From an uncultured Candidatus Binatia bacterium (GTDB lineage Bacteria > Desulfobacterota > Binatia > UBA9968 > JAJDTQ01), in NCBI GenBank assembly GCA_965218305.1, contig OZ244617.1, positions 3,058,983 through 3,122,982 on the forward strand: a stretch of DNA of 64,000 nucleotides, written 5' to 3'. The notes under the pieces are model-generated. The model made no database searches. It saw nothing but the letters and a program-made list of their open reading frames with translations, and was not told the DNA's origin. Each line of letters starts with the position of its first letter. Position 1 is the first letter of the stretch. A program made the position numbers and the translations under genes. Below are positions 10,534 through 36,799 of the stretch, piece after piece.

Positions 10534-10539
10534 CGGTCA

Positions 10540-14484: not shown

Positions 14485-14504
14485 TCCCGTACCCAAGCGG
14501 GATT

Positions 14505-16058: not shown

Positions 16059-16076
16059 GGCGGTCTGCGGGTCCCT

Positions 16077-17060
16077 TCAATTCAACAACATGGGAATAAA
16101 GCCTTCCAGCACCATGCGCCGGTTGTAATTCCGGTGAATGGCCCGGGTCACTCGGTCGATCTCGGCCAGGGCGTCCGTCGACTGCTGCACGCGCCGTTCC
16201 GCGGCCGCGCTCTGGAGCGGCTCCAGGAGGTCCCGGTTGTAGATCGCCGACGGCGCGCCCGTGACCTGAAGCACCATGATATCACGCAGCCATCCCTTGA
16301 CCCATTCCAGGAATCTCAACGCCTTCTCGCGGTCGCTGCCCATCTCCTCGGCCAACGCCGAGATCCCCCGCATGTCGTCGGACGAGAGCCCCGCAAGCCG
16401 GCGAAAGCATTCCTGTCTCTCTTCCAGCATCTCCGTCCCCTCGCCGGCCAGGGCCTTGCCCAGGCTCCCGTAACCCAGCGCCGCCAGCAGCAGCGCCCGG
16501 TCTTCGGGAACGTCCTTGCGCCGGGCCACGACGGCGGCGGCCTGCTCCACCGTCAGCGGGGAGAACCGAAGCCGGAGGCAGCGGGACAACACCGTGGGCA
16601 GAACGCCCCCGGTGCTCTCGGCGACAAGGATCAGCAGGGACTCGCCCGGAGGTTCTTCCAGGGTCTTGAGCAACGCGTTCTGGGCATGGAGGTTCATGAG
16701 GGTCAGGGGGTCGATGATGGCGATTTTCTTCATCCCGCTGAAGCAGTGCAGGACCAACTCCCGCTGCAACTCCCTCACCTGCTCGATGGTGATGTCCCGC
16801 TTGCCCTTGCGCTGCTCCAGCCAGTGCACGTCCGGATGGTTGCGGTTATCGATGCACCGGCAACTCGAACATTCGCCGCAGGCGTCGCCGGCCCCCTCCG
16901 GGCATTGAACCGCGGCCGCCAGGGCGGTGGCTACGGTCCGCTTGCCCGTGCCCTCGGGCCCCACGAAGAGATAGGCGTGATGCAGCCGCTGGCGGTGGAC
17001 GGCCCGCCGCAGCAGCTCGATCTGGCCCTGGTGGCCAACGATGTCCTGGAACCTCAGCAT
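16077..17060 (-). CDS. holB: DNA polymerase III subunit delta'
   Basis: AAA+ P-loop LFVGPEGTGKRT and zinc module CGECSSCRC. Position downstream of tmk is typical. Confidence 0.85.
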   Translation of the reverse strand: MLRFQDIVGHQGQIELLRRAVHRQRLHHAYLFVGPEGTGKRTVATALAAAVQCPEGAGDACGECSSCRCIDNRNHPDVHWLEQRKGKRDITIEQVRELQRELVLHCFSGMKKIAIIDPLTLMNLHAQNALLKTLEEPPGESLLILVAESTGGVLPTVLSRCLRLRFSPLTVEQAAAVVARRKDVPEDRALLLAALGYGSLGKALAGEGTEMLEERQECFRRLAGLSSDDMRGISALAEEMGSDREKALRFLEWVKGWLRDIMVLQVTGAPSAIYNRDLLEPLQSAAAERRVQQSTDALAEIDRVTRAIHRNYNRRMVLEGFIPMLLN

Positions 17061-17073
17061 CCCGCTCCCGGCG

Positions 17074-17724
17074 TCATTCTCCGTTGCCTCCCGCGCCCAG
17101 CCGCTCGGCGACGATCCGCCTGATCCGCTCCTGGGTGTCGGTCACCGGTCCGTCGGAACGGACCACCACGCAACGCGAAGGCTCGGCCTCCGCCAACTCC
17201 AGGAAGCCCTCTCGCACCCGGCGCTGGAACGCCGCGCCCTCGGCCTCGAACCGGTCTTCCCGCACGGCTTGCCGGCCCAGCCGCTCGGCGGCACGGGCCA
17301 GCGCCACGTCCACGGGACAGTCCAGGACGATGGTCAGCTCCGGCATGGTCCCACCCGTTGCCACGAGATTCAACCGGCGCAGCAAGTCCAGGTCCATGCC
17401 GCGCCCATAACCCTGGTACGCCAGCGTCGAGTCGGCGAAACGGTCCGACACCACGAGCCTGCCCTGCTCCAGGGCGGGCCTGACGACCTCGTGCACGTGC
17501 TGGGCCCGGTCCGCCAGGATCAGGAAAAGCTCGGTCTCGTCCGACAGCGATTCCGGCCCGCCCTCGACCAGGAGACGCCGGAGCTCCTTTCCCAACGGAG
17601 TGTCGCCCGGCTCCCGGGTCATCAGACGGGGCACTTCCCGCGAATCCAGATACTCGCCGAGCAACCCGATGTGCCGGCTCTTTCCCGACCCGTCCCCGCC
17701 CTCGATGGTCACGAAACGCAACAT
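17074..17724 (-). CDS. tmk: Thymidylate kinase
   Basis: FVTIEGGDGSGKS P-loop and a DRF-like motif (DRFADSTLAYQG). 216 aa. Confidence 0.9.
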   Translation of the reverse strand: MLRFVTIEGGDGSGKSRHIGLLGEYLDSREVPRLMTREPGDTPLGKELRRLLVEGGPESLSDETELFLILADRAQHVHEVVRPALEQGRLVVSDRFADSTLAYQGYGRGMDLDLLRRLNLVATGGTMPELTIVLDCPVDVALARAAERLGRQAVREDRFEAEGAAFQRRVREGFLELAEAEPSRCVVVRSDGPVTDTQERIRRIVAERLGAGGNGE

Positions 17725-17938
17725 TCCAACCAGCCGTCGCCAACGTCTCCCGCGCCGGATTGACGCGCGCTCCCACGCATGGACAGGATATTACACGAGA
17801 ATGGGACGGCTGCCCAACCGCGCGCGCCGGCCGGGACTCGTATTGCAAAACGGCTCACGGGTCTGGTACGGCTGTTCCCCGGAGCGGCGCACCGGCGACG
17901 CTCCGGATCAAGGGCGTCTTTCAAACGCGGGAGCTTTC

Positions 17939-18841
17939 ATGCGCGGAACCACGCCGAGACGAATGCAGGGGATGGCCGATCCCGTGCTGGCCTCCATGGT
18001 CCATTCCATGGGCATGGACGAGGTGCCTCACTACGCGAGCCGTTCGGAACTGGTGGTCGGATACGTCAACCGATGCACGGAGAACGCCAAGTTCCGCGAC
18101 GGTCCGGTGAACCCGCAACGGGTCGAGGTGACGGACCGTGCCGCCATGACCGCCCGGGTCAAGGCCAAGGCCCGGGAGCTGGGCGCGGACCTGGTGGGCA
18201 TCTGCCGGCTCAGGCCGTCCATGATCGACCTGGGGAAAGAGGTTCCCCACGAGTACGTGATCGCCGCCTGCGTGAGCGAGGATTACCACAAGGTCCTCGA
18301 CGGAGCGGATGCGGTGGAGGAAGAGGCCATGCGGGTGTACGCGGTGGTCTCGGACCTGTCCACCGAGCTCGCGTCCTACATTCGCGAGCTGGGGTACCCC
18401 GCCTGGGCCCATCACAACGGGGTCCGGGAGGTACAGGCCATTCCGGTCTTCTATCAGGTCGGGTTCGGCGAGCTCGGCAGGCACGGGAGCCTCATCAACG
18501 AACAATACGGGGCGGACTTCCGGCCCGGGTTCGTCACCACCGACCTGCCGCTGGACGAAGACCAGCCGCGCGAGTTCGGGGTTCAGGACTTCTGCACGAA
18601 CTGCAACGTGTGCATGCAGAACTGTCCGGGGGACGCGATTCCCCAGGAACACGTCATGACCGACGGCATCAAGCGCTGGTTGATCGATCTCGAGAAGTGC
18701 TACCCGTATTCCCGCCTGCGCGACGAGTACTGCCACCTGTGCGTGGACGTGTGCCCTTACAACGTGCGCAGTCACCGGACCACGTTCAAGACCTTCATGA
18801 AGGAACGCAAGCGCGTGGGGTACAAGACCCCGACGTACTGA
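17939..18841 (+). CDS. QueG/reductive-dehalogenase-superfamily iron-sulfur protein (epoxyqueuosine reductase-like), two 4Fe-4S motifs
   Basis: ELGADLVGICRL N-terminal motif. GFGELGRHGSLIN resembles the QueG GLGWIGKH block. Fe-S motifs are CTNCNVCMQNCP and CHLCVDVCP. Start placed at the first ATG (17939) outside the divergent tmk gene. Confidence 0.5.
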   Translation: MRGTTPRRMQGMADPVLASMVHSMGMDEVPHYASRSELVVGYVNRCTENAKFRDGPVNPQRVEVTDRAAMTARVKAKARELGADLVGICRLRPSMIDLGKEVPHEYVIAACVSEDYHKVLDGADAVEEEAMRVYAVVSDLSTELASYIRELGYPAWAHHNGVREVQAIPVFYQVGFGELGRHGSLINEQYGADFRPGFVTTDLPLDEDQPREFGVQDFCTNCNVCMQNCPGDAIPQEHVMTDGIKRWLIDLEKCYPYSRLRDEYCHLCVDVCPYNVRSHRTTFKTFMKERKRVGYKTPTY

Positions 18842-18846
18842 GAGCC

Positions 18847-19023
18847 GTGGAGAAGTTCTACCTGCACGAGCGCAGGCCCGACGGCGAGGTCAGCACCGTC
18901 GGACTGTACTACTCACGGGAAGAAGCGGAGGGCGTCATCGCGCAGCTCAGGGAATTGCCGGAGAAGCAGGGCTGCGAGTACCTCCTGGTCCAGCCCGACG
19001 ACGACCCGCCGGAACCCCGCTGA
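18847..19023 (+). CDS. Hypothetical small protein (58 aa, GTG start)
   Basis: Non-low-complexity ORF MEKFYLHERRPDGEVSTVGLYYSREEAEGVIAQLRELPEKQGCEYLLVQPDD, immediately after the QueG-like gene. No homology recognised. Confidence 0.3.
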   Translation: MEKFYLHERRPDGEVSTVGLYYSREEAEGVIAQLRELPEKQGCEYLLVQPDDDPPEPR

Positions 19024-19166: not shown

Positions 19167-19760
19167 TCAGGGTGCCGCCATCAGGTTGGCGGGTGTTACG
19201 ACAGAGCGTAGCGTATGGGTGCGGTAACCCCCGTTCCGGGGGTAGCGCGGGTCCCGTTTGGCGGTTCGGGTGGTCACGCCGATCCGGAGTTGGCGTATGT
19301 CGGCGCTCACGGTGGTGGCGTTGCCCGAGGCGTCGAGGTACTCCACGGTGAAGCCCTCCACGTCTTCCGCCAGGGGCTGGCCCCCGCCGCCCGTGTCACG
19401 CTTGAGTTGCCGGCGCTCGGGGTCGTGAAAGTAGACGACCCGTTCATTGGCATCGGACACGTCCCCGTCGCCGTTGCGGTCGGCCGCGATGCCCAACCGG
19501 GCGGGATGGTAGGAGAGCCCGGCAATCCCGGCCCGCGCGGGATCGTATCCTGCCGTTCGAGCGTCCCGGATCACCAGGGTCATGGCGGCGCGGGCGTTCT
19601 GTTGCATGGCAGTGAGCTGTTCCTGAAGGTCGTAGGCGGTGATCTGAGCGGTAAAGCTCGTGACCACCGCGGCCAGCAGGATTCCCTGGATCGACAGGAC
19701 CACCAGAAGCTCGATCAGGGTGAAGCCCCGATCGAGGCGCCTGCTCACCGGCAGCGACAT
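19167..19760 (-). CDS. Prepilin-type N-terminal cleavage/methylation domain protein (PilW/GspJ-like minor pseudopilin)
   Basis: GFTLIELLVVLSIQGILLAAV prepilin signal after an internal Met (MSLPVSRRLDRG|FTLIELL). ATGA overlap with the upstream pilV-like gene. Confidence 0.6.
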   Translation of the reverse strand: MSLPVSRRLDRGFTLIELLVVLSIQGILLAAVVTSFTAQITAYDLQEQLTAMQQNARAAMTLVIRDARTAGYDPARAGIAGLSYHPARLGIAADRNGDGDVSDANERVVYFHDPERRQLKRDTGGGGQPLAEDVEGFTVEYLDASGNATTVSADIRQLRIGVTTRTAKRDPRYPRNGGYRTHTLRSVVTPANLMAAP

Positions 19761-20167
19761 CACCGGCCCAGAAGCGTCCGCAGGACCGCCGACCGCGCGT
19801 CCCGATCCCAGTACACCGTGACCGTGACGGTGCTCAAGCCGATCTCGGGGGCATCGAGCCGGACATCGGTGACCCGCTTGTAGAGGAGAAATCCGGGTAT
19901 CGTCCCGTAGTCCTCGGTGGTCGAAATCGCGCTTCCTCCGCCCAGACCCTTGAGGCCTTCGATGCGGTTCTGCGCCAGCAGCGTGGCCACCCCGTGTTGC
20001 CGGCTCGCGCGGTTCCCCTCCATGACCCCGACCGTGAGACGGCCGATGCCCAGCAGACCCGTGGACAGGATCAGCATCGCCACCAGCAGCTCGATCATGG
20101 AAAACCCGCCGCGCGGAAGCGCCCTGGAGCCCGTCCGCGAGGACCGTGTCACGTCGTGCCGCCTCAC
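19760..20167 (-). CDS. Prepilin-type minor pilin/pseudopilin (PilV/GspI-like)
   Basis: Leader then GG|FSMIELLVAMLILSTGLLGI. 135 aa. Translationally coupled to both neighbours. Confidence 0.6.
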   Translation of the reverse strand: MRRHDVTRSSRTGSRALPRGGFSMIELLVAMLILSTGLLGIGRLTVGVMEGNRASRQHGVATLLAQNRIEGLKGLGGGSAISTTEDYGTIPGFLLYKRVTDVRLDAPEIGLSTVTVTVYWDRDARSAVLRTLLGR

Positions 20168-20622
20168 CGTATCCGCACGCGGCCGGCAATGCTGATGCTG
20201 ACCCGCTTCGAGCCGGCGGCGTTGGTCAGCGTGATGGTGGCCAGGCTGCTGGCCGTGCCCCTGGGACTGAAGACCGGATTGTTGTTGGAGCCCATCACCA
20301 CGCCCTCATAGTCCGCCCTCAGGTCCCGGGTGAGGGTCCATTCCCCGGGATCGGCGGCGCCGTCGTTGTCGGCATCGTCGAGGATCCGGTACTCGTGCTC
20401 GCTCAGGAAGAACACCCGGTACCGGTTGTTTCTCTGGATGGCCTTCATGCGCGCCCACATGAGATCCCCCGTGAGTTGGCGGACGGCGCCGTTGAGCCGA
20501 TGCCTCGGCATGACCTTCAGATAACCCGGGACGGCGATGGCAAGCATGATGCCGGCCAGGGTCAGGGTGATCAGTTGACCCAGGAGCGAGAACCCCGCCG
20601 TCCCTTGGAACGCTCGCGGCAT
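20164..20622 (-). CDS. GspH/FimT-family pseudopilin
   Basis: Prepilin-like N-terminus AGFSLLGQLITLTLAGIMLAIAVPGY and a GspH/FimT-type C-domain (RNNRYRVFF). Start placed at MPRAFQGTAGF. Confidence 0.6.
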   Translation of the reverse strand: MPRAFQGTAGFSLLGQLITLTLAGIMLAIAVPGYLKVMPRHRLNGAVRQLTGDLMWARMKAIQRNNRYRVFFLSEHEYRILDDADNDGAADPGEWTLTRDLRADYEGVVMGSNNNPVFSPRGTASSLATITLTNAAGSKRVSISIAGRVRIR

Positions 20623-20635
20623 CCCCTCACTCCTT

Positions 20636-21412
20636 TCAGAAGACCCGGACCAGGGCGGACAGGCACAGGAAGGGCCCGAAGGGCAAGGGCGTCCCAAGCG
20701 AAACATCCCTCCTGACGACCATGAGCCCCATGCCCCAGAAGGATCCCATGAGAGCGCTCAGGAATAGAATGTGCGGCACGTCCTCCCAGCCCACAAAGGA
20801 ACCGATCATCGCCAACAGCTTGACGTCGCCGCCGCCAAGGCCGTCCCGGCCGGTGAAAGCCCGGTAGCCGCAGGCCGTGGCCAGCAGCACACCCCCGCCG
20901 AACAGCGCGCCCAGGAGAGAGCTCAACGGCGACGGCCAGTCCCGGATCGAGAGCGCCGGGGCGCACCACGACAGACCGAATGCCCCGGCCGTGCCGTAGA
21001 CGCTGATGACATCGGGGATGATTCCGGTTTCGAAGTCGATGACGGCTGCCGCCAGCAGCGCGCCGGCAAGGGCAAGCTGTACGATGAGGCGCGGCCCGGG
21101 GCCAAAACGGCGGTACCATGCCAGCGTCATGGCGGCGGCGCACAACTCGACCAGGAAATAGCGCGGGGAGATGCGGACGCCGCAGCGAGCGCACCGCCCG
21201 CGCAACAGGACATAGCTGATCAGCGGGAGCTTGGCCCACACGGGAAGGCCGCATTCGCAGGAGCGGCAATGCGACCCGGGAAACAGGAGCGATTCGCCCG
21301 CGGGGAGCCGCGTGATGCAGACGTTCAGGAAGCTGCCGATACAGGATCCCAGAACGAAGAGCAGAAGCCCCCGCGCCTGTTCGAGTGTTGCGATCGCCGT
21401 TCCTCCGCCCAT
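20636..21412 (-). CDS. pilD: Prepilin peptidase (A24 family, PilD/GspO)
   Basis: N-terminal tetracysteine Zn motif (CRSCECG...CARCG), the catalytic Asp region GGGDVKLLAMIGSFVGW, and a multi-pass membrane topology. Confidence 0.85.
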   Translation of the reverse strand: MGGGTAIATLEQARGLLLFVLGSCIGSFLNVCITRLPAGESLLFPGSHCRSCECGLPVWAKLPLISYVLLRGRCARCGVRISPRYFLVELCAAAMTLAWYRRFGPGPRLIVQLALAGALLAAAVIDFETGIIPDVISVYGTAGAFGLSWCAPALSIRDWPSPLSSLLGALFGGGVLLATACGYRAFTGRDGLGGGDVKLLAMIGSFVGWEDVPHILFLSALMGSFWGMGLMVVRRDVSLGTPLPFGPFLCLSALVRVF

Positions 21413-21541: not shown

Positions 21542-22687
21542 TCAGCGATTCCTGGATGCCAGCCATCCCCGGATCAGGGGAAAGACCTCGGTCTTGGCTT
21601 TCTTTCCGAGAATCAGGTCGAAGTGGCCGTAGCTGACGTCTTCGTCCGGGTCCGACCAGAAGATCATGAGGTCGCGATCCTCCGAAGACAACTCTTCGTA
21701 GACCTTCCTCAAGGCTGCCGGCGGCGCGATGGGGTCCGCCGCGCCCCCTATCAGGAGAACCGGGACATGGATTTTCGGGAGCCCATCCCGGTAGCTGGAT
21801 GCGCCGTCGGCGGAGACGAACTCGTCCTTGTCCACGGTCGTGACCAGTTGCTCTAAAACACCAGGGTTGACCGGAATCAGCAGCGTCTCCTGCAGTTCCT
21901 GCGCGACCCGCGGCTCCATGTTCCTGGGGTTGTAGAACACCTCTTTGAACCCGGGAACCATGAACAGAAACCGGTTCAGACCGGAGGAGCTCCAATAGAG
22001 AAGGGCGTTCCGCAGGGCCGGCTGGCGGTCCAGTCTGAGCAGGATGTCCAGCCCGTCCTGCTCACGGCTGTCGAAGGACATGGGCGCGGCGACGCTGACG
22101 ATCCCCGCGACGCCGTGATCACCAACCTTGCCGGCATGGGCCAGGGCCAACGCGCCGCCCAGCTCGTAACCCACCACAAAGACTTCGCTACTGCCGGAGG
22201 TCTTCTTGACGTATTCGATGACCGCGGGAAGGTCGTCCCTCAGGATGTCGTCCAGGGTCCAGGGCTTTCTTCCCCAACCCAACGGGTTGAGGCTGCGGCC
22301 GGTGCCTCGCAGCGACAGGTTCCAGACGTCAAAGCCGGCCTCGGCCAGGTACTCCGCCAAGCTCGCTCTGCCGTAGTCGAGGAAGCGGCTGTCCACCAGC
22401 AGGCCGTGGATGAGGATGACGGGTCGCGGGTGCCGTACGTTCTTGCTGAGACGGAACCGCATGGCGGTGAGCTCGAACTTCGTCTCGGTGACGGCCCAGT
22501 GACGCTTGGATTTTACGTACTCGTCGTCCAGCGAGGCTGCCCCCACCGGTCCAGGCAAGAGGCACAACAGGGCCGTTGCCAGGCAGAAGCAGAACACCCG
22601 GTACGTGACACCAAGAGAGTCCTGGTGACCTTCTCCCGAGGTCAGGGTCCGCCAGAACTGAACATCGATGAACCGCATCTCGTTCAC
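21542..22687 (-). CDS. Alpha/beta hydrolase (secreted, lipase/esterase-like)
   Basis: Signal-peptide-like N-terminal region. PVILIHGLL oxyanion region and a nucleophile elbow (VVGYELGG). 381 aa. Confidence 0.6.
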   Translation of the reverse strand: MNEMRFIDVQFWRTLTSGEGHQDSLGVTYRVFCFCLATALLCLLPGPVGAASLDDEYVKSKRHWAVTETKFELTAMRFRLSKNVRHPRPVILIHGLLVDSRFLDYGRASLAEYLAEAGFDVWNLSLRGTGRSLNPLGWGRKPWTLDDILRDDLPAVIEYVKKTSGSSEVFVVGYELGGALALAHAGKVGDHGVAGIVSVAAPMSFDSREQDGLDILLRLDRQPALRNALLYWSSSGLNRFLFMVPGFKEVFYNPRNMEPRVAQELQETLLIPVNPGVLEQLVTTVDKDEFVSADGASSYRDGLPKIHVPVLLIGGAADPIAPPAALRKVYEELSSEDRDLMIFWSDPDEDVSYGHFDLILGKKAKTEVFPLIRGWLASRNR

Positions 22688-22708: not shown

Positions 22709-23341
22709 TTATCCGGGCCGGTAGTGGACCACCCGCAGCGGCTTCAAGTTCCCGGAGTTGCAAGGATTGAGCACCTGGGGACAATTCGACCCGGCCACCA
22801 GGACATCCATGTCGGCCCTGAAGTCGATGTAATCGCCCGCCTTGGATTTCGGTGGTTCGATGGAGAACGTCCCGTCAGCCTGGATGGGGCAATTCATGAA
22901 GACATTCATGTTGTAGGGTATGTCTTTCCATGCAAGCCCCCAGGGTTCGAGAGCGGCGACGAAGTTGTCCCGGCAATTGGCAGCGCCCGGAACCCCGTAG
23001 CGGAATTCGTTGGTGTAGCGGGAGCAGGCCCCCGCGAGCATGTCGTGGGTGCAGCAAGTATCCGCCACAATCGTCATGAGCTTGCCGGCTTTATCCGAGA
23101 GCAGGGTGTAGCCGACCGTCGGATAAATCTGCTTGTTGAGGTTCAGCGTGTTCTCCGGGGAGAGTCTTTCAGCCAAATCATGCAGATTGAAAGCCAGGAA
23201 ATCCATCACCTGCTGCCCCTCGATATCGACGATTCGGAACACCTCTCCTTCCCGGACTTCCCCGGCGTAATGCCCCGCTGGTTCGATGATTTTGTCCGCG
23301 ATGATTTCTCCGGAAATCTTGTCTGCATCGGTGCTCATCAT
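22709..23341 (-). CDS. DUF1989 (urea carboxylase-associated protein-like) family protein
   Basis: FRIVDIEGQQ...D and conserved Cys/His-containing blocks are typical of DUF1989. Start placed at MMSTD, which has a perfect AAGGAGG Shine-Dalgarno 8 nt upstream. Confidence 0.55.
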   Translation of the reverse strand: MMSTDADKISGEIIADKIIEPAGHYAGEVREGEVFRIVDIEGQQVMDFLAFNLHDLAERLSPENTLNLNKQIYPTVGYTLLSDKAGKLMTIVADTCCTHDMLAGACSRYTNEFRYGVPGAANCRDNFVAALEPWGLAWKDIPYNMNVFMNCPIQADGTFSIEPPKSKAGDYIDFRADMDVLVAGSNCPQVLNPCNSGNLKPLRVVHYRPG

Positions 23342-23385
23342 TAGCCCTCCTTGAATCAGGCGGTGATTGCGCCGCCGAAGATACG

Positions 23386-24234
23386 TCACGCCGAATACGG
23401 AGAAACAGGCGTGATGTTCCTGTAGTCCACCGGCAGCGGCTCGACGTGGATGCCGGCATCGATCTCGGCCATGCGTGCTTCGGTCAACGGATAGCCGAAG
23501 GTTTCGTTGCGGAGCCTCAGGTGCGCCGTGGCCTTCTCGGTGATGATATGCCGCGCGGTCTCGAGGTCGTCGTCGTTGCGGATGGCCTGGGCGATGTGGG
23601 GAATGTGGACGGGTCCGTGGCGCATCTCGTCGTGGAAGATGATGCCCATGGCTTCGGCGATGGCCTTTTCGACGGCGCCCCCGGAATAAGAGGTGTAAGG
23701 GAGTTCGAGCAGCCTGTTGCCCATGTAGAAGATGGCTGCTCCGGCGCCCTCGGAAAAGCCCAGGGCCACGTCGGCAAGGTCGCCGTAGGTTTCATCGAGC
23801 CGCCGGGTGACCTCCACCTCGGCGGTCATGGCCGGCAAGTCCGGGTGCCCCTTGCGTTCGTGCTGGCAGCCCGAGAGGGCCAGCAGCTCCCGCGGGTCCG
23901 GTCTCGTCCCCGCAATCTGCTCCATGATGTCCGCCAGGAGCCGGTAGTGCCGCGCCTCTTCGTAGACCGACCGCGTGGAGGCCTCGAAGGACCCGCGGCC
24001 GACCGCCGTCTCGATACGCGCGAGATCGCCGGGCAGGGCCTGGAGCAGCCGTTCCACCGTGCCGAGCTCCCGCGCCGCCTGCAGCTTGAGCCAGTGCAGG
24101 TCGTCCTCCCGGGTCCGAGGGTTGGAGAAGTAGGTGCGGACCACTTCCGCCTCCCCGGCCCACCAGCGCAACGGGGCGGCTTCGAGAGCCGCCGTGCGCT
24201 CATGGAGTTTCGCGTCCGGTTCCATCCCTGACAT
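23386..24234 (-). CDS. Uncharacterised protein, paralogue of 35129..35992; possible ferritin-like diiron fold (two E-x-x-H motifs)
   Basis: Clear paralogy with the second copy (RLRNETFGYPLTEARMAEIDAG vs RMRNEQFSYPIDEARIQEIAAG). Contains EEARH and DEMRH motifs. Start at MSGMEPD, with a GAGGAAG RBS upstream. Confidence 0.5.
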   Translation of the reverse strand: MSGMEPDAKLHERTAALEAAPLRWWAGEAEVVRTYFSNPRTREDDLHWLKLQAARELGTVERLLQALPGDLARIETAVGRGSFEASTRSVYEEARHYRLLADIMEQIAGTRPDPRELLALSGCQHERKGHPDLPAMTAEVEVTRRLDETYGDLADVALGFSEGAGAAIFYMGNRLLELPYTSYSGGAVEKAIAEAMGIIFHDEMRHGPVHIPHIAQAIRNDDDLETARHIITEKATAHLRLRNETFGYPLTEARMAEIDAGIHVEPLPVDYRNITPVSPYSA

Positions 24235-24419: not shown

Positions 24420-25631
24420 ATGCGGGCGAATACAGAGAGAAAGGTGAAACGCTGGCAGGAGCAACGCTGGATACTGGATCAGGTCATCAAGGTCAGCGGC
24501 CTCGACTTCGATCAGGGGCGCTCGGGCAAGATGCTGCGGAACTGCGGTCCGGCCATCGCCGGGGAGTTGCGGGGCTTCGGGCAGACGGTACAGAAGTTCA
24601 CGGACTTCCCGCGGGAGTTCTCCCACGCCGCCCAAACGCGGGAGCGGCGGGGGCGGGCCGCCGAGGAGTTGGGGCACACGGTGGAGGCGCGCGAGCACTA
24701 CTACGTGGCGGCCACCTACTACACCGCGGCCCAGTGGGGCATCTTCGAGGACGGCAACCCGCAGCGGATGGCCTGGGCGGAGAGCAAGCGGGACTGCTAC
24801 GACCGCTACATCCGGTTCGCCGATCATCCCATCGAACGGGTGGACCTGCCCATGCCGGGCGGGCAGATGATGGCGGCGCTGCTCCACCTGCCGCACAAGC
24901 CGGCGCCGGGGGAGCGGTTCCCGTGCATCCTCTACCAGCCGGGCATGGACGGGGTGAAGGAAGACAATCCGCTCATGGGCGATCCGCTGTTGCAACGAGG
25001 AATGGCGATCCTGTCCATCGACGGCCCGGGGCAAGGCGAGACCCGGGAACGGGGCATCACCGTCACCGCCTCCAACTGCGAGGACGGCGCCAAGGCAGCC
25101 TACGCCTATCTCAAGACCCGTCCCGAGATCGACAGCGACCGGATGGCGATCTACGGGTCCAGCATGGGCTCCTACTGGGGCACGCGCATGGCGGCCGCCG
25201 TACCCGGCTTCAAGGCCTGCGCGGTGGCGGGCGTGTGCATGGAACCCACCCATTACTCCATCTTCAACACCGCCGCGCCGAGCTTCAAGCTCAACTATAT
25301 GTACATGGCCGGCTACGACGACGAGGCGGAGTTCGATGAGTTCTGCAAGACCTTGACCCTCGAAGGGGTGGCGGCCAAGATCCAGTGTCCCATGGTGGCG
25401 GCGGGGGAGGACGACGAGCTCTGTCCCATCGAGTTCGTCTATCAGCTCATGGACGAGGCCACTTGTCCCAAGGTCCTCTACGTCTACGAAGGCGAGCGCC
25501 ACTCCATCCGTAACCCGGCGGCGCGCACCATCATCGTGGACTGGCTCAAGGACTGCCTCGACGGAAAGCCGGTCACGTCGGAGAAGGTTTACGTCGAGAT
25601 GAGCGGCAAGGAGACCCGGACGCGGTTCTGA
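24420..25631 (+). CDS. Alpha/beta hydrolase (dienelactone hydrolase / DHPON-hydrolase-like C-C or ester hydrolase)
   Basis: Nucleophile elbow IYGSSMGSYWG. 403 aa with an N-terminal cap domain. Confidence 0.6.
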   Translation: MRANTERKVKRWQEQRWILDQVIKVSGLDFDQGRSGKMLRNCGPAIAGELRGFGQTVQKFTDFPREFSHAAQTRERRGRAAEELGHTVEAREHYYVAATYYTAAQWGIFEDGNPQRMAWAESKRDCYDRYIRFADHPIERVDLPMPGGQMMAALLHLPHKPAPGERFPCILYQPGMDGVKEDNPLMGDPLLQRGMAILSIDGPGQGETRERGITVTASNCEDGAKAAYAYLKTRPEIDSDRMAIYGSSMGSYWGTRMAAAVPGFKACAVAGVCMEPTHYSIFNTAAPSFKLNYMYMAGYDDEAEFDEFCKTLTLEGVAAKIQCPMVAAGEDDELCPIEFVYQLMDEATCPKVLYVYEGERHSIRNPAARTIIVDWLKDCLDGKPVTSEKVYVEMSGKETRTRF

Positions 25632-26204: not shown

Positions 26205-27662
26205 ATGCAGATGTTCATTGCTGGCGAGTATACGGATACGGCAAGCGGCGAGACCGTCGCCATACACAACCCTGCCACCGGAGAGTTGGTGGACACCGTT
26301 CCAAAAGGCACGGCGGATGACGTGAAGCGGGCGGTTGCGGCCGCGGAAGAGGCGGCGGTGGAGTGGGGCAAGTTTTCTCCGCCCAAGCGTGGCGCCTGCC
26401 TGACCGAGGCCGCGCGCCTCGTGCTGGAGAACGAGAAAGAGCTGACCCAGTTGCTCACCAGGGAACAGGGCAAGGCGCTGCGCGAGTCGGTGCTGGAGAT
26501 CCGCCGCTTCGCCCACACCCTGGAGCACTATGCCGGCATGGCGAAGACGCTGCGGGGCGGCTACGTGAAGCTGGATGACGGGCGCTACGGGCTGATCATG
26601 AGCAAGCCCATGGGGGTGGTGGGCTCCATCGTGCCGTGGAACTTCCCCGTATCGTTGATGGGCAACAAGGTGGGTCCGGCGCTGCTCGCGGGCAACGCTA
26701 TGGTCATCAAGCCCGCCAGCACCACGCCGCTGACCGCCACCCGGTGCGTCGAGCTGGTGCAGCAGGCGGGGCTTCCCAAGGGCACCATCAACATGGTGAC
26801 CGGACCCGGCGGGGACGTGGGTGAGGAAATCCTCCGCCACCCGGCCATCCGGAAGGTGGGCTTCACCGGCGCCACCGACACCGGCAAGCGGATCATGGAG
26901 GTGGCTTCCCGGGAGGTCAAGCGGGTTACCCTGGAGCTCGGCGGCAGCGACCCCATGATCGTGTGCGACGATGCCAACATCGACCGGGCGGTGAGCGCGG
27001 CCTCCGTGGGCCGTTTCTTCAACTGCGGCCAGGCGTGCCTGGCGGTCAAGCGCCTCTACCTGTACGACGGCATCGCCGACGAATTCATCGAGAAGCTGGT
27101 GGAGAAGGTCCGCAAGCTGCGGGTAGGCAACGGCCTGACGCGGGGCACCATGCTCGGACCGCTGCACACCAAGGCGCAGCGCGAGGAGGTGGAGGAACAG
27201 GTGGCGGACGCGGTGCAGCGCGGCGCCAAGGTGCTGGTGGGCGGCGATCGCCCCACCGGCGACGAGTACGACAAGGGCAACTTTCTGAATCCGTCGGTCG
27301 TGGTGGATGTCGATCCCGCGTCCAAGCTGCTGGCGGACGAGGTGTTCGGACCGGCCCTGCCGGTGGTGCGGGTCAAGAACCTCGAGGAGGGCTTGGCGCT
27401 GGCCAACGATTCCATCTTCGGTCTGGGCTCCTCGATCTGGACCCAGGACATCGACAAGGCCATGTTCGCGGCCGAGAAGCTCGACGCCGGGTACACCTGG
27501 GTCAACTCCGCTCAGATCATCTACGACGAGCTCCCCTTCGGCGGCGTGAAGCAGAGCGGCGTCGGCAAGGAGCACGGCAACGAGGCCGTGGAGCACTACA
27601 GCGAGGTCAAGTCCGTGGTCGTGGCCACGGAGCAAACTTCCGAGATGGTGGGAGGCGAATAG
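26205..27662 (+). CDS. NAD(P)-dependent aldehyde dehydrogenase
   Basis: ALDH family, 485 aa. Catalytic Cys region FFNCGQACLA, Glu motif LELGGSDP, and Rossmann region GSIVPWNFP. Confidence 0.9.
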   Translation: MQMFIAGEYTDTASGETVAIHNPATGELVDTVPKGTADDVKRAVAAAEEAAVEWGKFSPPKRGACLTEAARLVLENEKELTQLLTREQGKALRESVLEIRRFAHTLEHYAGMAKTLRGGYVKLDDGRYGLIMSKPMGVVGSIVPWNFPVSLMGNKVGPALLAGNAMVIKPASTTPLTATRCVELVQQAGLPKGTINMVTGPGGDVGEEILRHPAIRKVGFTGATDTGKRIMEVASREVKRVTLELGGSDPMIVCDDANIDRAVSAASVGRFFNCGQACLAVKRLYLYDGIADEFIEKLVEKVRKLRVGNGLTRGTMLGPLHTKAQREEVEEQVADAVQRGAKVLVGGDRPTGDEYDKGNFLNPSVVVDVDPASKLLADEVFGPALPVVRVKNLEEGLALANDSIFGLGSSIWTQDIDKAMFAAEKLDAGYTWVNSAQIIYDELPFGGVKQSGVGKEHGNEAVEHYSEVKSVVVATEQTSEMVGGE

Positions 27663-27724: not shown

Positions 27725-29278
27725 ATGAGCGCTCCGCGACTCGAACTGCCGGACCCCTACAACGCGGCCACCACGTTCGTCGACGACAACGTCACCGCGG
27801 GCCGTGGCGAGCGCACCGCGATCCTGTACGAGGACCAGCGGTTCACCTACCGGCAGGTCCAGGAGGCGGTCAACCGGGCCGGCAACGCGTTCCGCGGCCT
27901 CGGCCTGGACACCGAGCAGCGCGTCCTGCTGGTGCTCCCCGACTGTCCCGAGTTCGCTTCCAGCTTCTTCGGCGCCATCAAGATCGGCGCCGTTCCCATT
28001 CCGGTGAATCCCTGGATGAAGGCCGGGGATTACGAGTATCTCCTCAACGACAGCCGGGCTCGCATCGTCGTGGTGCACGAGTCCGCGCTGCCGGAGATCG
28101 AGGCCATCCGCCAGCGGCCGCGCCACCTGCGGCACGTCGTGGTCGTGGAAACGTCGCGGGGTAGCGCCACGGGTTGGGACGCCCTGCTGGAGGGACAGTC
28201 CGCGGAGCTCGAAGCGGAACCCACCGGACGCGACGATGTCGTCATGTGGAACTACACCTCGGGCAGCACCGGCAACCCCAAGGGCGCGGTCCACCTCCAG
28301 CACGACATGATCACCATCACGGATCTGTTCGTGAAGCCCGTGCTCGGCATGACCGAAGACGACGTCTGCCTCTCCGCCTCCAAATTGTTCTTTTCCTACG
28401 GGCTGGGGAACTCCCTCTACTTCCCCTTCCGTTTCGGCGCCGCCGGCGTGCTGTGGCCCGAACGGCCGGATCCGGAGAAAATCCTCCAAACCATCGAGCG
28501 GTACCGGCCCACCTTCTTCTTCTCGGTGCCGACGCTCTACGCCCGCATGCTGCGGGTGGAAAAGGAATACGACCTCGGCTCCCTCAAGGTCTGCCTGTCC
28601 TCCGGAGAGCCGCTGCCGCCGGCCCTCTTCAATCAGTGGCGGGAGAAAGTCGGCGTGGAGTTGCTGGACGTCGTAGGCTCCACCGAGGCGACCCACGATT
28701 TTCTCGCCAACCGGCCGGGACGGGCCAAGGCGGGAAGCAGCGGCGAGGTGACGCCGGCCTTCGTGGCCAAGGTGGTGGACGACGAGGGGCGGGAGGTGCC
28801 CAACGGCGAGGTGGGCAACCTGTACGTCAGCGGCGACGCCACCGCGCCCTACTACTGGAACAAGCACGAGCAGACCCAGCGCACCATGCTCGGGGAGTGG
28901 CTCAAGACCGGCGACACGTACTACCGGGACGACGACGGCTATTTCTGGTACTGCGGCCGCTCCGACGACATGCTCAAGGTGGGCGGCCTGTGGGTCTCGC
29001 CCATCGAGGTGGAGAACGCGTTGATGGAGCATCCGGTGGTGCTCGAGGCGGCGGTGACCGGAGCGGCGGACGGCGACGGCCTCATCAAGCCCAAGGCCTA
29101 CGTCATCCTCAAGACCGAGCACCGCGGCGCCGATGGGCTGGCCCAGGAGCTGCAGGACTTCGTCAAGGGCAGCCTGGAACCGTACAAATACCCGCGCTGG
29201 GTGGAGTTCGTGGAAGATTTGCCGAAGACCGTGACCGGCAAGATACAGCGGTTCAAGCTCAGAGAAGGGAATGGATGA
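27725..29278 (+). CDS. Benzoate-CoA ligase family aryl-carboxylate--CoA ligase (AMP-binding)
   Basis: AMP-binding motifs YTSGSTGNPKG and YRTGD-like (WLKTGDTYYRDDDGYFWYCGRSDDMLKVGGLWVSP). Start at MSAPRLE; the longer ORF would overlap the ALDH gene. Confidence 0.8.
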   Translation: MSAPRLELPDPYNAATTFVDDNVTAGRGERTAILYEDQRFTYRQVQEAVNRAGNAFRGLGLDTEQRVLLVLPDCPEFASSFFGAIKIGAVPIPVNPWMKAGDYEYLLNDSRARIVVVHESALPEIEAIRQRPRHLRHVVVVETSRGSATGWDALLEGQSAELEAEPTGRDDVVMWNYTSGSTGNPKGAVHLQHDMITITDLFVKPVLGMTEDDVCLSASKLFFSYGLGNSLYFPFRFGAAGVLWPERPDPEKILQTIERYRPTFFFSVPTLYARMLRVEKEYDLGSLKVCLSSGEPLPPALFNQWREKVGVELLDVVGSTEATHDFLANRPGRAKAGSSGEVTPAFVAKVVDDEGREVPNGEVGNLYVSGDATAPYYWNKHEQTQRTMLGEWLKTGDTYYRDDDGYFWYCGRSDDMLKVGGLWVSPIEVENALMEHPVVLEAAVTGAADGDGLIKPKAYVILKTEHRGADGLAQELQDFVKGSLEPYKYPRWVEFVEDLPKTVTGKIQRFKLREGNG

Positions 29279-29308: not shown

Positions 29309-30010
29309 ATGGACGACTTGGTAGCGTTGAGAGACAAAGTGGCGATCTCGTGCAATATCCTGGCCATCGATGGGCACTGGGACAATATCCTGGGGCATGT
29401 ATCGGCCCGGGTGCCGGGCGAGAACGCCATGTTGATGAAGCCCCACAGCTACGGCTTCGAGGAGATCCGCCCGTACCACATCATCAAGGTGGACTTCGAC
29501 GGCAACAAGACAGAAGGCGACTACGAGCGCCACTCCGAGGTCTTCATCCACACGGAGATCTACAAGGCGCGCCCGGATGTGAACTGCGTCATCCACAGCC
29601 ATCCGCCCTACGCCACGGCTTTTGCCTCCCTGAGACAGCCGCTGCGGCCGGTGAGCCACGAGGGCTCCATCTTCCACGATGGGCTCCCCCTCTTCGACTA
29701 CACCACGATCCTGATCCGGACGCCCGAGCTGGGGGTGGAGCTGGCCAAGAAGCTGGCCCAGGCCCGCGCCGTGCTGATGAAGAACCACGGCTCCACCGTG
29801 GTGGCCGAATCGGTGGAGACCGCTACCCTGTACGCGATCTTTCTGGAGAAGGCGTGCCGCATACAGCTCCTTGCCGCCGCTGCCGGAGATCCCACCTGGA
29901 GCAGCGACGAGGAAGCGCGGGAGAAGTACGAGCAGATATATACGCCGCACCGGCTCGGCAGCATGTGGGACTATTTCGTGCGCCGCGCGAAACGGCTCGC
30001 CATCGACTGA
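29309..30010 (+). CDS. Class II aldolase/adducin-family protein
   Basis: HSHPPYATAF zinc-ligand region. 233 aa. Confidence 0.75.
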   Translation: MDDLVALRDKVAISCNILAIDGHWDNILGHVSARVPGENAMLMKPHSYGFEEIRPYHIIKVDFDGNKTEGDYERHSEVFIHTEIYKARPDVNCVIHSHPPYATAFASLRQPLRPVSHEGSIFHDGLPLFDYTTILIRTPELGVELAKKLAQARAVLMKNHGSTVVAESVETATLYAIFLEKACRIQLLAAAAGDPTWSSDEEAREKYEQIYTPHRLGSMWDYFVRRAKRLAID

Positions 30011-30083: not shown

Positions 30084-31082
30084 ATGGCCGAGAAACTTCA
30101 TTTGACACTGGCTTGCGGCGACTACGAGAGCATCCGCGCCCTCAAGGAGGGAACCGTGCAGCCGGACGGCATCGAGCTCACCGTGCTGACGGACATGGAC
30201 TCGTCCACGCGGCACTGGCGCGTGTCGCGTTTCCGCGAGTTCGACGTCGCCGAGCAATCGGGCTCATCCTATCTGCTGGCCAAGGACCGGGGCGAGGCGG
30301 ACGACCTCACCGCCATCCCGGTCTTTCTCCACCGCCGGTTCCGCCACGGCTTCATCTTCATCAACGCCAACAAGGGCATCAACGAACCGAAGGATCTCGC
30401 CGGCAAGACGGTGGGGCTCAAGAACTGGCAGGCCACGGCGCTGCTGTGGATCCGGGGCACGCTGGGGGACGAGTACGGCGTTTCGTTCAAGGACATCGAA
30501 TGGCGCGCCGAAAAGGAAGAGGACGTACCCTTCGATCCGCCGGAAGGTCTTCGGATGGAGCGCCTTCCCAAGGGTTCGCACGTGGAGGATATGCTGGCCG
30601 AGGGAGAGCTGGACGCCGTCATCCACCCGGATATCCTCTCGCCGATCCTGGACGGGGACACCCGGGTCAAGCGCATCTTCGACGATCCCAAGAAGGTCGA
30701 GCTCGATTACTTCCAGCGCACCGGCATCTTCCCCATCATGCACACCACGGTCATCAAGCAGGAGATCGTGGACAGACATCCCTGGGTGCCCATGAACATG
30801 ATGGTGGCGTTCGAGAAGTCCAAGCAGGCCGCCTACCGGAGGATGGACAATCCTAGGGTCGTGCCGCTGGCGTTCTTCCGGGACTCCTGGGAGGAGCAGA
30901 TCGAGCTGCTGGGCGAGGATCCGTGGATCTACGGGCTCAACGACACCAACCGCAACAACTTCGGGACCCTGGCGCGCTACTCCCGGGAGCAGGGCATGAT
31001 CAAGAAGGAACCCAACGTGGACGAGCTCTTTCACGAGACCGTTCGCGGCGAGGAGTGGAAGCTGGCGCGCTCCCGCGGTTAG
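30084..31082 (+). CDS. 4,5-dihydroxyphthalate decarboxylase-like (PhtD/NMT1-THI5 fold) protein
   Basis: N-terminus LHLTLACGDYESIRALKEGTVQPDGIELTV...FREFDVAEQSGSSYLLAKDRG matches the PhtD-family pattern. 332 aa. Confidence 0.55.
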   Translation: MAEKLHLTLACGDYESIRALKEGTVQPDGIELTVLTDMDSSTRHWRVSRFREFDVAEQSGSSYLLAKDRGEADDLTAIPVFLHRRFRHGFIFINANKGINEPKDLAGKTVGLKNWQATALLWIRGTLGDEYGVSFKDIEWRAEKEEDVPFDPPEGLRMERLPKGSHVEDMLAEGELDAVIHPDILSPILDGDTRVKRIFDDPKKVELDYFQRTGIFPIMHTTVIKQEIVDRHPWVPMNMMVAFEKSKQAAYRRMDNPRVVPLAFFRDSWEEQIELLGEDPWIYGLNDTNRNNFGTLARYSREQGMIKKEPNVDELFHETVRGEEWKLARSRG

Positions 31083-31097: not shown

Positions 31098-31985
31098 ATG
31101 ATCCCCCCTCCCTTCGAGTACCGGGCGCCGGATTCGATTCCCGAAGCGCTCGCACTGCTCCGCGAGTACGGTGACGAGGCGCGCCTCATGGCGGGAGGGC
31201 AGTCCCTCCTGCCGATGCTGAAGCTGAGGCTGATACGGCCTCGGGTGATCATCGACATTGGCGGACTCCGGGAGTTGGCGGACGTGACCGAGGATGCGGA
31301 TTCCTTGCGGATCGGCGCCCTGGTGACGGAACGGACCCTCGAACGCACGCTTGAGATACGCCAGCCGCTCCTTTCCGAGGCAGCCGCGAGTATCGGCGAC
31401 ATCCACATCCGAAATCTCGGCACCCTCGGCGGCACCCTGAGCCAGGCGGACCCGTCGGGCGACCTCGCCCCCGCGGTGCTGGCGCTGGGGGCGACCCTGA
31501 CGGCCCAATCCGCCGGCGGCAGCCGCACCATCGCCGCCCACGATTTCTTTTCCGGGCCGTTCGACACCTGTCTGTCCGACGACGAAATGGTAACGTCCGT
31601 GGACGTCCCGGTTCCGGCCGGTGTCTGGGGCCACGCCTACGTCAAGCTCACGCGCCGGGCCGGCGACTACGCGGTGGTGGGGGCCGCGGTGGTGGTGAGC
31701 CTGTCGCCGGACGGCACCTGTCAGGACAGCCGCGTCGCCCTGTGCGCGGTGGGTCCCACGGCGTTCGTCTGCGAAGCCACGGGCCGGTCGCTCCGCGGCA
31801 CCAAACTGACGGACGCCGATCTGGCGCAAGCCGCCGCGCTGGCCGGGGAGGCTGCGGACCCGGTAAGCGATGTCCACGCGTCGGCGGAGTACCGGAGGCA
31901 GATGACGCCCGTAGTGGTCACCCGGGCCCTGACGCAGGCTCGGGAGAGGGTCCGGTCGCGGCTGGACGAGCAGTCGGCGCCATGA
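31098..31985 (+). CDS. Molybdenum hydroxylase FAD-binding medium subunit (CoxM/XdhB-like)
   Basis: FAD-binding PCMH domain (EYRAPDSIPEALALL...LMAGGQSLLPMLKLRL). 295 aa. Confidence 0.85.
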   Translation: MIPPPFEYRAPDSIPEALALLREYGDEARLMAGGQSLLPMLKLRLIRPRVIIDIGGLRELADVTEDADSLRIGALVTERTLERTLEIRQPLLSEAAASIGDIHIRNLGTLGGTLSQADPSGDLAPAVLALGATLTAQSAGGSRTIAAHDFFSGPFDTCLSDDEMVTSVDVPVPAGVWGHAYVKLTRRAGDYAVVGAAVVVSLSPDGTCQDSRVALCAVGPTAFVCEATGRSLRGTKLTDADLAQAAALAGEAADPVSDVHASAEYRRQMTPVVVTRALTQARERVRSRLDEQSAP

Positions 31986-32250: not shown

Positions 32251-32721
32251 ATGCAACGGATCACCGTCCACACTACCATTAACGACAAGGCTTACTCCTT
32301 CGAGGTGGAGCCGCGGCTCCTGCTGGTGGATCTCATCCGCGACAAGGCCGGCCTCAAGGGGACCCACGTGGGTTGCGACACCGGCAACTGCGGCGCCTGC
32401 ACTGTCCTCATGAACGGCCTGACCGTGAAGTCGTGCCAGGTGCTGGCGCCCCGGGCCGAGGGGGCGAAGATCCGCACGGTGGAAGGCCTGGCGCCGAGCG
32501 GAGAGCTGCATCCGATCCAGGAAGCGTTCTGGGAATGCGACGCACTGGAGTGCGGCTTCTGCACACCCGGGATGCTGATGACCACGGTGGCCTTTCTCGA
32601 GGAGAATCCTCACCCGTCCGACCAGGAGATTCGCCGGGCCTACTCCGGCAACCTGTGCCGCTGCACCGGTTATCTGAACATCATCAAGGCGGTCAAGCAG
32701 GCGGCGGAGGGGATGCGCTGA
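32251..32721 (+). CDS. Molybdenum hydroxylase [2Fe-2S] small subunit (CoxS/XdhC-small-like)
   Basis: Two 2Fe-2S motifs: CDTGNCGACTV and CGFCTPGM...CRCTGY. 156 aa. Confidence 0.9.
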   Translation: MQRITVHTTINDKAYSFEVEPRLLLVDLIRDKAGLKGTHVGCDTGNCGACTVLMNGLTVKSCQVLAPRAEGAKIRTVEGLAPSGELHPIQEAFWECDALECGFCTPGMLMTTVAFLEENPHPSDQEIRRAYSGNLCRCTGYLNIIKAVKQAAEGMR

Positions 32722-36001: not shown

Positions 36002-36799
36002 GTGAGGGAGACCGGCGTGACGTCCTACATTGAGCTCGAAGGCAGGGACGGCATCGCGTTCATCACGCTGAACCGGCCCGACAAGCTCAACGCCATGAAC
36101 GAGGAGATGTGGACGGAGCTGGGACGCGTGTGGGATGCGTTCGCGGCGGACGCGGCGTTGCGCGTGGCCGTGGTGAGCGGCGAGGGCGAGCGGGCGTTCT
36201 CCACGGGCATGGACCTGAAGGAGCGGGCGGTGGCGGGCGACCCGCGGGCGCGGGAGTTCTGGACCTCGGCCCTGGCCCGGGATCCGGGGCGCCGGGAGCC
36301 CGTGTGGAAGCCCATGATCGCCGCGGTGCACGGGTACTGCCTGGCCGGGGGCTTCGAGATCGCCCTTTCCTGCGACATCCGCATCTGCAGCGAGGACGCC
36401 ACCTTCGGCCTGCCGGAGATCAAGCGGGGGTTCTTCCCGGGCAGCTCGGGCACCGTGCGGCTGCCCCGCATCATGCCGTTGGGGATGGCCCTGGAGATGC
36501 TCTACACCGGCGCGTCCATCTCCGCGGCGGAAGCCTTCCGCTGCGGCCTGGTGAACCGAGTGGTGCCGCGGGACGAGTTGATGACCGAGGCCGAGAAGCT
36601 CGCCCGGGCCATCGCCGACGGGCCGCCGTTGGCACTGCAGGCGGTCAAGGAGGTGGTGCTGCGGGGCCTCGACCTCCCGCTGGCCGACGCCATCCGCTTC
36701 GAGGCCGGTTTCCGGGCCATGGTGGGCGGCACCGAGGACGCCGGCGAAGGCCCCCGTGCCTTCAGCGAGAAGCGGAAGCCGAGTTTCAAGGGCCGCTGA
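36002..36799 (+). CDS. Enoyl-CoA hydratase/isomerase (crotonase) family protein
   Basis: Crotonase-fold motifs VVSGEGERAFSTGMDL and AAVHGYCLAGGFEIALSCD. Confidence 0.85.
   Translation: MRETGVTSYIELEGRDGIAFITLNRPDKLNAMNEEMWTELGRVWDAFAADAALRVAVVSGEGERAFSTGMDLKERAVAGDPRAREFWTSALARDPGRREPVWKPMIAAVHGYCLAGGFEIALSCDIRICSEDATFGLPEIKRGFFPGSSGTVRLPRIMPLGMALEMLYTGASISAAEAFRCGLVNRVVPRDELMTEAEKLARAIADGPPLALQAVKEVVLRGLDLPLADAIRFEAGFRAMVGGTEDAGEGPRAFSEKRKPSFKGR

Follow-up and report, generated by a model that had tools for sequence, protein, structure and literature searches.

Dimetal-carboxylate oxygenases carry out difficult oxidations, including C–H hydroxylation, desaturation, N-oxygenation, and C–C cleavage, and new dimetal families have repeatedly brought new chemistry with them, as UndA, BesC, AetD, and BioE did. 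The classical dimetal-carboxylate site has four carboxylates and two histidines as ligands (PMC4118035); R2lox, R2c, and the bacterial multicomponent monooxygenases have the version in which all four carboxylates are glutamates. Supply of the ligands from four helices defines the ferritin-like diiron oxygenases, as opposed to the haem-oxygenase-like dimetal oxidases and oxygenases (HDOs), which use three histidines and three (or four) carboxylates from three core helices, α1–α3 (PMC13108848). Here we describe a protein family present in two copies in a 64,000-nucleotide stretch of contig OZ244617.1 from an uncultured Candidatus Binatia bacterium (the whole stretch analysed is referred to below as the window). 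Judged by its sequences, it appears to be a new family of dimetal-type helical-bundle proteins whose ligand pattern and faint sequence signal are ferritin-like. We consider it probable that the family binds a dimetal centre. More broadly, we infer metal binding, O2 activation, and a substrate class, and we propose, with middling confidence, that it is a previously undescribed group of dimetal oxidases or oxygenases that activate O2 in the catabolism of aromatic carboxylates. The two copies are encoded as follows.

23386–24234, minus strand: family copy 1, 282 residues (translation, BLASTP against copy 2, AlphaFold2 (AF2) model, conserved columns, and ratio of nonsynonymous to synonymous substitution rates (dN/dS))
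35129–35992, plus strand: family copy 2, 287 residues (translation, homologue clusters, conserved columns, AF2 model, and dN/dS)

The initial annotation of this DNA, which described open reading frames (ORFs) 23386–24234 and 35129–35992 as paralogues, gave no strand. Copy 1 is a minus-strand gene: it starts with an ATG at 24234 behind a GAGG-type ribosome-binding site, stops at 23386–23388, and encodes the product MSGMEPDAK…SPYSA, and reading 23386–24234 on the plus strand gives a nonsense translation with no homologues. The paralogy is real, since the two proteins share 31% identity across 257 residues by BLASTP (E = 3e-32), and the shared blocks pointed out earlier, DEMRHGP/DDERGHGP and RLRNETFGYPLTEARMAEIDAG/RMRNEQFSYPIDEARIQEIAAG, are found in the translations. 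A hidden Markov model (HMM) of the family run against the six-frame translation of the window recovers these two copies only. Measured against orthologues, dN/dS is 0.05–0.29 for copy 2 and 0.14–0.27 for copy 1, indicating purifying selection on both, and both are therefore functional genes. Pfam contains no match for either copy, even at E ≤ 10, and the sole NCBIfam match for the pair, MzaA, is noise (E = 0.05; 12 bits, where the cutoff stands at 800), which agrees with the earlier statement that the family has no nameable identity.

To describe the size and spread of the family, we combined several searches. A word-indexed search of 5.8 billion proteins connected copy 2 to 47 clusters and copy 1 to 79, all of them labelled "hypothetical protein" and none carrying a Pfam domain. 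When the family profile was run exhaustively with HMMER over 1.84 billion representatives, 507 clusters (at 50% identity) passed E ≤ 1e-3, of which 328 also passed E ≤ 1e-10, the matches being essentially all standalone proteins of about 240–290 residues. By these counts the family is small and rare. Scanning one genome per species gave 223 relatives (alignment A2), most of them in Candidatus Binatia metagenome-assembled genomes (MAGs) and the others in Dehalococcoidia, Burkholderiales, Alphaproteobacteria, Terriglobia, Methylomirabilota, and Defluviicoccus. Literature searches for an earlier description found none. With no name, no prior description found, and no Pfam or NCBIfam model, the family is new, whereas the dimetal-carboxylate helical bundle is well known as a kind of protein; what marks this family within that kind is an apparently uncommon pairing of scaffold and ligand set.

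Single Binatia genomes hold an orthologue of copy 2 (84–95% identity), an orthologue of copy 1 (87–90%), and a third paralogue with ~39% identity to copy 2; OZ220710.1, for example, has all three, at loci L003, L048, and L032, respectively. Because the same genomes carry orthologues of each copy plus the third paralogue, the duplication that separated copies 1 and 2 is old. The third paralogue, which is not in the window, is found at L031–L040 (e.g., L039, 5739–10773) in the order TctC, Amidohydro_2, family gene, (aminotransferase-like gene), and short-chain dehydrogenase/reductase (SDR), with XRE-cupin regulators nearby.

The conserved residues of the family suggest a metal site. Across 43 sequences, Q52, E56, E105, H108, G177, E209, H212, R248, F252, P255, and G267 are invariant (copy-2 numbering, used below unless copy 1 is named). 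In a set of 55 sequences with a mean identity of 24%, E56, H108, and R248 are invariant, and E27, R40, Q52, E105, E176, G177, G178, E209, H212, and F252 are conserved in at least 90%. The candidate ligands are E56, E105-x-x-H108, E176, and E209-x-x-H212 in copy 2 and E56, E93-x-x-H96, E162, and E203-x-x-H206 in copy 1, so that the family displays the E…ExxH…E…ExxH pattern of two histidines and four carboxylates characteristic of ferritin-like dimetal-carboxylate proteins. Two further signatures are specific to the family: a helix with A-G-E-A-E at the N-terminal end and the motif R-x-R-N-E-x-F-G-x-P at the C-terminal end.

This residue set bears on how the two copies relate. It had been suggested that copy 2 keeps one E-x-x-H motif only and may be a non-catalytic partner of copy 1. 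Copy 2 has two such motifs, E105-L-N-H108 (QELNH) and E209-R-G-H212 (DERGH), which align with EEARH and DEMRH of copy 1 in columns that are invariant in the 43 sequences. Because copy 2 keeps all of the conserved residues, a role as a non-catalytic partner is unsupported. The more modest suggestion of a diiron-type enzyme in two copies still stands as a reading of the E-x-x-H pairs and the four-Glu/two-His pattern.

AF2 predicts, with high confidence, all-helical structures for both copy 2 (predicted local distance difference test (pLDDT) 90.2, predicted template modelling score (pTM) 0.89) and copy 1 (pLDDT 91.9, pTM 0.89). The first hairpin of the copy 2 model places E56 in the middle of helix 42–71 and E105/H108 in the middle of helix 92–120; past a long crossover, the second hairpin presents E176 and E209/H212 on helices ~164–187 and 193–209. 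Judged from the DSSP strings, the two ligand hairpins and the long crossover in both models suggest a ferritin-like topology. In the second hairpin, however, both helices are broken exactly at the ligand residues.

Comparison with known structures gives a faint signal in the ferritin-like direction. Foldseek found no match in the Protein Data Bank (PDB) below E = 0.02, and when a profile of the narrower alignment A1 was searched against the PDB, the matches were all at chance level. The broad family profile reaches R2lox, a member of the ferritin-like superfamily (3ee4, E = 0.0017; 7qbp, E = 0.0032), marginally and with the first ligand helix outside the alignment. In this alignment, the ExxH, E(GG), and DExxH elements of the family lie over FEEAKH, VEG, and DDERRH, which supply metal ligands in R2lox. 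The family differs from R2lox (PDB 3ee4, 4hr0, and 7qbp) in length (~280 versus ~310–320 residues), in having the AGEAE helix and the R-x-R-N-E-x-F-G-x-P motif as its own, and in the kinks of its predicted helices at the ligand positions. Scanning 55 members against Pfam detected DUF455 weakly in six (best E = 4.4e-6) and Rubrerythrin, AurF, and Ferritin-like in one each. Ten of the most divergent members show no DUF455 match, and the signal is therefore confined to a few other members. For the small ferritin-like diiron oxygenases in general (aldehyde-deformylating oxygenase, MiaE/MiaE-like proteins, Coq7, and DUF455), there is no model match for copy 1, copy 2, or the ten divergent members, and the genomic role of the family, in catabolic operons, is different.

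The overall bundle, as modelled, is at least as close to the haem oxygenase (HO)/TenA scaffold. The family could be imagined as an HDO with non-canonical ligands, for instance an UndA/BesC-like oxidative decarboxylase or a C–C-cleaving enzyme that acts directly on a carboxylate, an explanation that we regard as unlikely. The histidines conserved family-wide are H108 and H212, and with two conserved histidines only, the family lacks the three-His/three-or-four-carboxylate set of HDOs. In the models, its candidate ligands come as ExxH pairs from four helices, not as three histidines and three carboxylates from three core helices. Neither PF14518 (Haem_oxygenas_2) nor PF03070 (TENA_THI-4) matches either copy at E ≤ 10, and neither is among the 25 best represented of the 35 families matched by the 55 members; the sequence-profile matches point instead to ferritin-clan proteins. 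Kinship with a PF14518 protein that is encoded alongside the family gene in ten loci was rejected (hhalign probability 0.2%). If the models are right, taking two histidines and four glutamates from four helices would set the family apart from the HDOs (UndA, CADD, HrmI, AetD, BesC, and SznF) as well as from the TenA/PqqC scaffold.

Both copies belong to one aromatic-acid catabolic island, which they flank in a layout that is conserved in Binatia. Copy 1 heads a minus-strand operon that continues through DUF1989 to an α/β-hydrolase, and copy 2 lies within the plus-strand array. The genes around them are listed below.

21542–22687, minus strand: α/β-hydrolase, end of the copy-1 operon (Pfam Abhydrolase_1, Hydrolase_4); conserved downstream of copy-1 orthologues
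22709–23389, minus strand: DUF1989, urea-amidolyase-associated-protein-like, directly downstream of copy 1 (Pfam PF09347, E = 2e-58; NCBIfam UAAP2-like, below cutoff)
24420–25631, plus strand: FrsA-like/S9 esterase, divergent from copy 1 and first of the plus-strand array (Pfam); conserved position
26205–27662, plus strand: aldehyde dehydrogenase (Pfam Aldedh, E = 2e-163)
27725–29278, plus strand: benzoate-CoA ligase family enzyme, start approximate (NCBIfam TIGR02262, 597 bits, above the cutoff of 375)
29309–30010, plus strand: class II aldolase/adducin-family protein, like the 3,4-dihydroxyphthalate decarboxylase PhtC (Pfam; NCBIfam DhpthDcsPhtC, 114 bits, below the cutoff of 200)
30084–31082, plus strand: PhtD-like protein, a cytoplasmic homologue of 4,5-dihydroxyphthalate decarboxylase (PDB 9jp7, E = 2.3e-52)
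31098–31985, plus strand: CoxM-like FAD subunit of a molybdenum (Mo) hydroxylase (Pfam FAD_binding_5, CO_deh_flav_C)
32251–32721, plus strand: CoxS-like 2Fe-2S subunit of the Mo-hydroxylase (Pfam Fer2, Fer2_2)
32718–35132, plus strand: CoxL-like large subunit of the Mo-hydroxylase, stop overlapping the copy-2 start (Pfam Ald_Xan_dh_C, MoCoBD_1, MoCoBD_2; NCBIfam equivalogs all below cutoffs)
36002–36799, plus strand: enoyl-CoA hydratase (ECH)/crotonase, directly downstream of copy 2 (Pfam ECH_1, E = 9e-63); conserved downstream of copy-2 orthologues
37167–38801, plus strand: UbiD-family decarboxylase (Pfam UbiD, UbiD_C, UbiD_N)
38817–39566, plus strand: TauE/SafE-family membrane protein (Pfam TauE)

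Three kinds of non-oxidative decarboxylase (PhtC-like, PhtD-like, and UbiD) thus stand in one operon, together with the benzoate-CoA ligase family enzyme, the Mo-hydroxylase, and the crotonase, a content that suggests catabolism of an aromatic polycarboxylate resembling the phthalate isomers. Downstream of the island, at 41250–51754 on the plus strand, are two consecutive branched-chain-amino-acid-type ATP-binding cassette (ABC) uptake systems (Peripla_BP_6, BPD_transp_2 permeases, and ATPases). Systems of this type often import aromatic acids, and these two could be the transporters of the island. On the copy-1 side, the likely true start of the DUF1989 gene is the ATG at 23341, which is preceded by AAGGAGG. 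Its product is related to urea-amidolyase-associated proteins as well as to the N-terminal portion of trimethylamine N-oxide (TMAO) demethylase; it scores below the cutoff of every NCBIfam equivalog. The pairing of DUF1989 with copy 1 occurs only in close Binatia orthologues, and insertions of ~2–2.5 kb interrupt it in L047, L048, and L051.

The position of copy 2 directly behind the Mo-hydroxylase genes led the initial annotation to suggest a functional link with that enzyme, copy 2 serving in its maturation or as an accessory subunit. The overlap on which this rested is visible in the sequence, the copy-2 ATG overlapping the CoxL TGA as ATGA (…GCGATGAGC…). We examined gene context across taxa in a close set of 25 loci with a copy-2 orthologue (≥84% identity), a distant set of 45 genome loci, and six metagenomic contexts with precomputed Pfam calls. 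Intact CoxM-CoxS-CoxL genes lie immediately upstream in 20 of the 25 close loci, and the ATGA overlap with CoxL is conserved in most of the Cox-containing orthologue loci. Four close loci (L019, L021, L022, and L024) are without any Cox genes and read PhtD-like, family gene, ECH. A fifth, L006 (6538–8000; OY729432.1, a Candidatus Binatia MAG), carries a decayed set: CoxM is without residues 1–124, and of CoxL there is a frameshifted remnant of residues 653–803, while both of its flanking genes, PhtD-like and the copy-2 orthologue, remain intact. In all five loci the family gene has its full length, none of the conserved residues is lost, and selection on it is purifying.

The distant loci give the same picture. 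CoxL, CoxM, and CoxS are absent within 8 kb from all 45 distant genome loci by tblastn (E ≤ 1e-4, no coverage filter), a test that detects CoxL at 24–32% identity elsewhere. Three of the six metagenomic contexts, which on this point favour the accessory idea, do have a Mo-hydroxylase, 3.5–6.6 kb away and never adjacent, as is expected in aromatic catabolic islands. Copy 1 has no Cox neighbour of its own. Neither copy has a Pfam match or a meaningful NCBIfam match to the accessory families XdhC/CoxF/CoxI, CoxG, CoxD, and CoxE, and no known Mo-hydroxylase maturation gene was seen among the window ORFs scanned, a scan that was not exhaustive. There is, then, no conserved association with coxL-type genes, and because the family gene is kept intact where Cox is absent or decayed and Cox is missing from the distant genome loci, an accessory or maturation role is unsupported. 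Gene context has largely refuted this idea, for copy 2 in particular, and we now consider it very improbable. The most parsimonious explanation, its direction being a matter of inference, is that one Binatia sublineage gained CoxMSL as a cassette, by insertion at the junction of the PhtD-like gene with copy 2, since a PhtD-like gene stands directly upstream of the copy-2-clade gene in Dehalococcoidia (L029 and L041), in L084, and in the Cox-less Binatia. The Mo-hydroxylase is at most a pathway neighbour and not an obligate partner, and its ATGA overlap with copy 2 is a lineage-specific accident of gene order, not evidence for a new Mo-enzyme maturation factor. Three apparent fusions of the family were also considered as functional clues and set aside as what look like gene-calling or assembly artefacts: P0018, a CoxL tail joined to a family protein by reading through the ATGA overlap, and P0243 (methyltransferase) and P0178 (CN_hydrolase fragment), each single and partial.

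The neighbours that recur beyond the window share a common theme, the catabolism of (aromatic) carboxylic acids alongside non-oxidative decarboxylases. A PhtD-like gene adjoins the family gene in the four Cox-less close loci, in 4 of the 45 distant loci (L029, L041, L045, and L056), and in the metagenomic context L084, and it is the copy-2-clade neighbour that persists across phyla. Amidohydro_2, of the LigW/ACMSD decarboxylase superfamily, is found immediately upstream of the third Binatia paralogue in eight loci and, independently of these, in L079. Within 7 kb, TctC-type carboxylate-binding proteins occur in 17 of 45 distant loci (and in L080) and an SDR in 27 of 45. Rieske dioxygenase subunits appear in 7 of 45 (also in L081–L083), ECH in 7, and thiolase in 8, with LigB nearby in several loci. 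A PF14518 haem-oxygenase-like gene lies immediately upstream in 10 of 45. No conserved reductase or ferredoxin was found among the family's neighbours.

The loci with the PF14518 gene, annotated as an "iron-containing redox enzyme" and located at ~7180–7960 in most, are L053, L057, L059, L060, L061, L063, L067, L068, L070, and L076. In these ten loci, SDR and SCP-x-type thiolase genes precede the PF14518 gene, and two different putative iron helical-bundle proteins are thus encoded side by side.

Two further explanations can be weighed against this context. One is that copy 2 is an analogue of the ring epoxidases that act on an acyl-CoA, of the BoxB/PaaA type, in which case the CoA ligase, crotonase, and aldehyde dehydrogenase in the window would mirror BclA, BoxC, and BoxD of the aerobic benzoyl-CoA pathway. 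We find this quite improbable. The family has no match to PF05138, the domain by which the PaaA/PaaC and BoxB epoxidases were sought, and PaaA and PaaC are not its best structural matches. Neither a reductase of the BoxA or PaaE type nor a PaaB or PaaD subunit was seen beside copy 2 or among the annotated neighbours. Nor is the CoA-pathway context conserved family-wide: over the 51 distant loci (the 45 genome loci plus the six metagenomic contexts), a CoA ligase is within 8 kb in ~3 and ECH in ~11, never adjacent. The other explanation is a non-redox role: the protein could be a hydrolase like TenA, a helical bundle that binds a ligand or acts in regulation, or a relative of ferritin or rubrerythrin that stores metal or detoxifies peroxide. 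It, too, seems improbable to us. The conserved E/ExxH/E/ExxH set is not a feature of TenA, and identity to TenA structures is 7–11%; a standalone protein of ~280 residues is not of Dps or ferritin size; and the consistent placement in catabolic operons, sometimes with translational coupling, argues for an enzymatic role in a pathway.

Returning to the proposed dimetal oxygenase, we envisage the following mechanism. A carboxylate-bridged Fe/Fe or Mn/Fe centre would be bound by four glutamates and two histidines, four helices contributing, in turn, E56, E105-x-x-H108, E176, and E209-x-x-H212. Once reduced, the centre would activate O2 and oxidize, most likely hydroxylate, an aromatic or other carboxylate, either as the free acid or as its CoA thioester. 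Because no dedicated reductase gene travels with the family, we propose that a general cellular reductant would supply the electrons. The substrate carboxylate may be held by R248, which is invariant, and by the conserved R40. The oxidation would create or use hydroxylated acids for the neighbouring decarboxylases (PhtD-like, LigW-type Amidohydro_2, PhtC-like, and UbiD). The PhtD, LigW, and PhtC types of non-oxidative decarboxylase require that the ring carry hydroxyls ortho or para to the carboxylate that is lost, and a hydroxylase acting upstream of them would therefore be chemically sensible. As old paralogues at the two ends of one Binatia catabolic island, copies 1 and 2 may serve different steps or substrates.

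Elsewhere, the window contains a low-GC stretch at 9793–12420 on the minus strand (0.52 versus ~0.65 elsewhere) that encodes a restriction-modification module and is probably a horizontally acquired island.

10540–12420, minus strand: fused HSDR_N/N6_Mtase/Eco57I-type enzyme
9793–10533, minus strand: Methylase_S-like specificity protein

Just upstream of the catabolic island, at 19167–21412 on the minus strand, are genes for a prepilin peptidase (A24) and for a type IV pilin-like protein whose N-terminus bears a methylation motif. Long ORFs without a Pfam match occur at 14460–17123, 17779–19023, 56557–57750, and 57890–58966 on the plus strand and at 7652–9634 on the minus strand; in a window of such high GC content, some of them may be spurious or called on the wrong strand. 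Positions 1–64000 contain no tRNA genes and no Rfam family at the gathering threshold.

What the family may mean for biology depends on its scaffold and its substrate. In a more specific form of the proposal, which we put forward tentatively and think unlikely as it stands, the scaffold would fall between the haem-oxygenase-like and ferritin-like types, an HO/TenA-like bundle fitted with a four-Glu/two-His site, and the protein would be an aromatic-carboxylate hydroxylase or oxidative decarboxylase that needs no dedicated reductase and has PhtD-like and LigW-like partners. If that is true, such an in-between enzyme would point to an unrecognized route by which Binatia, Dehalococcoidia, and other uncultured lineages break down aromatic polycarboxylates. 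The family would also offer one more case from which to judge the relationship of ferritin-like to haem-oxygenase-like dimetal scaffolds. It is almost confined to uncultured lineages, namely Candidatus Binatia, Dehalococcoidia, Methylomirabilota, and uncultured Burkholderiales and Alphaproteobacteria. Its operons are rich in aromatic-acid decarboxylases and carboxylate uptake proteins, and knowledge of its substrate could reveal an unrecognized step by which aromatic acids that are phthalate-like or derived from lignin are degraded.

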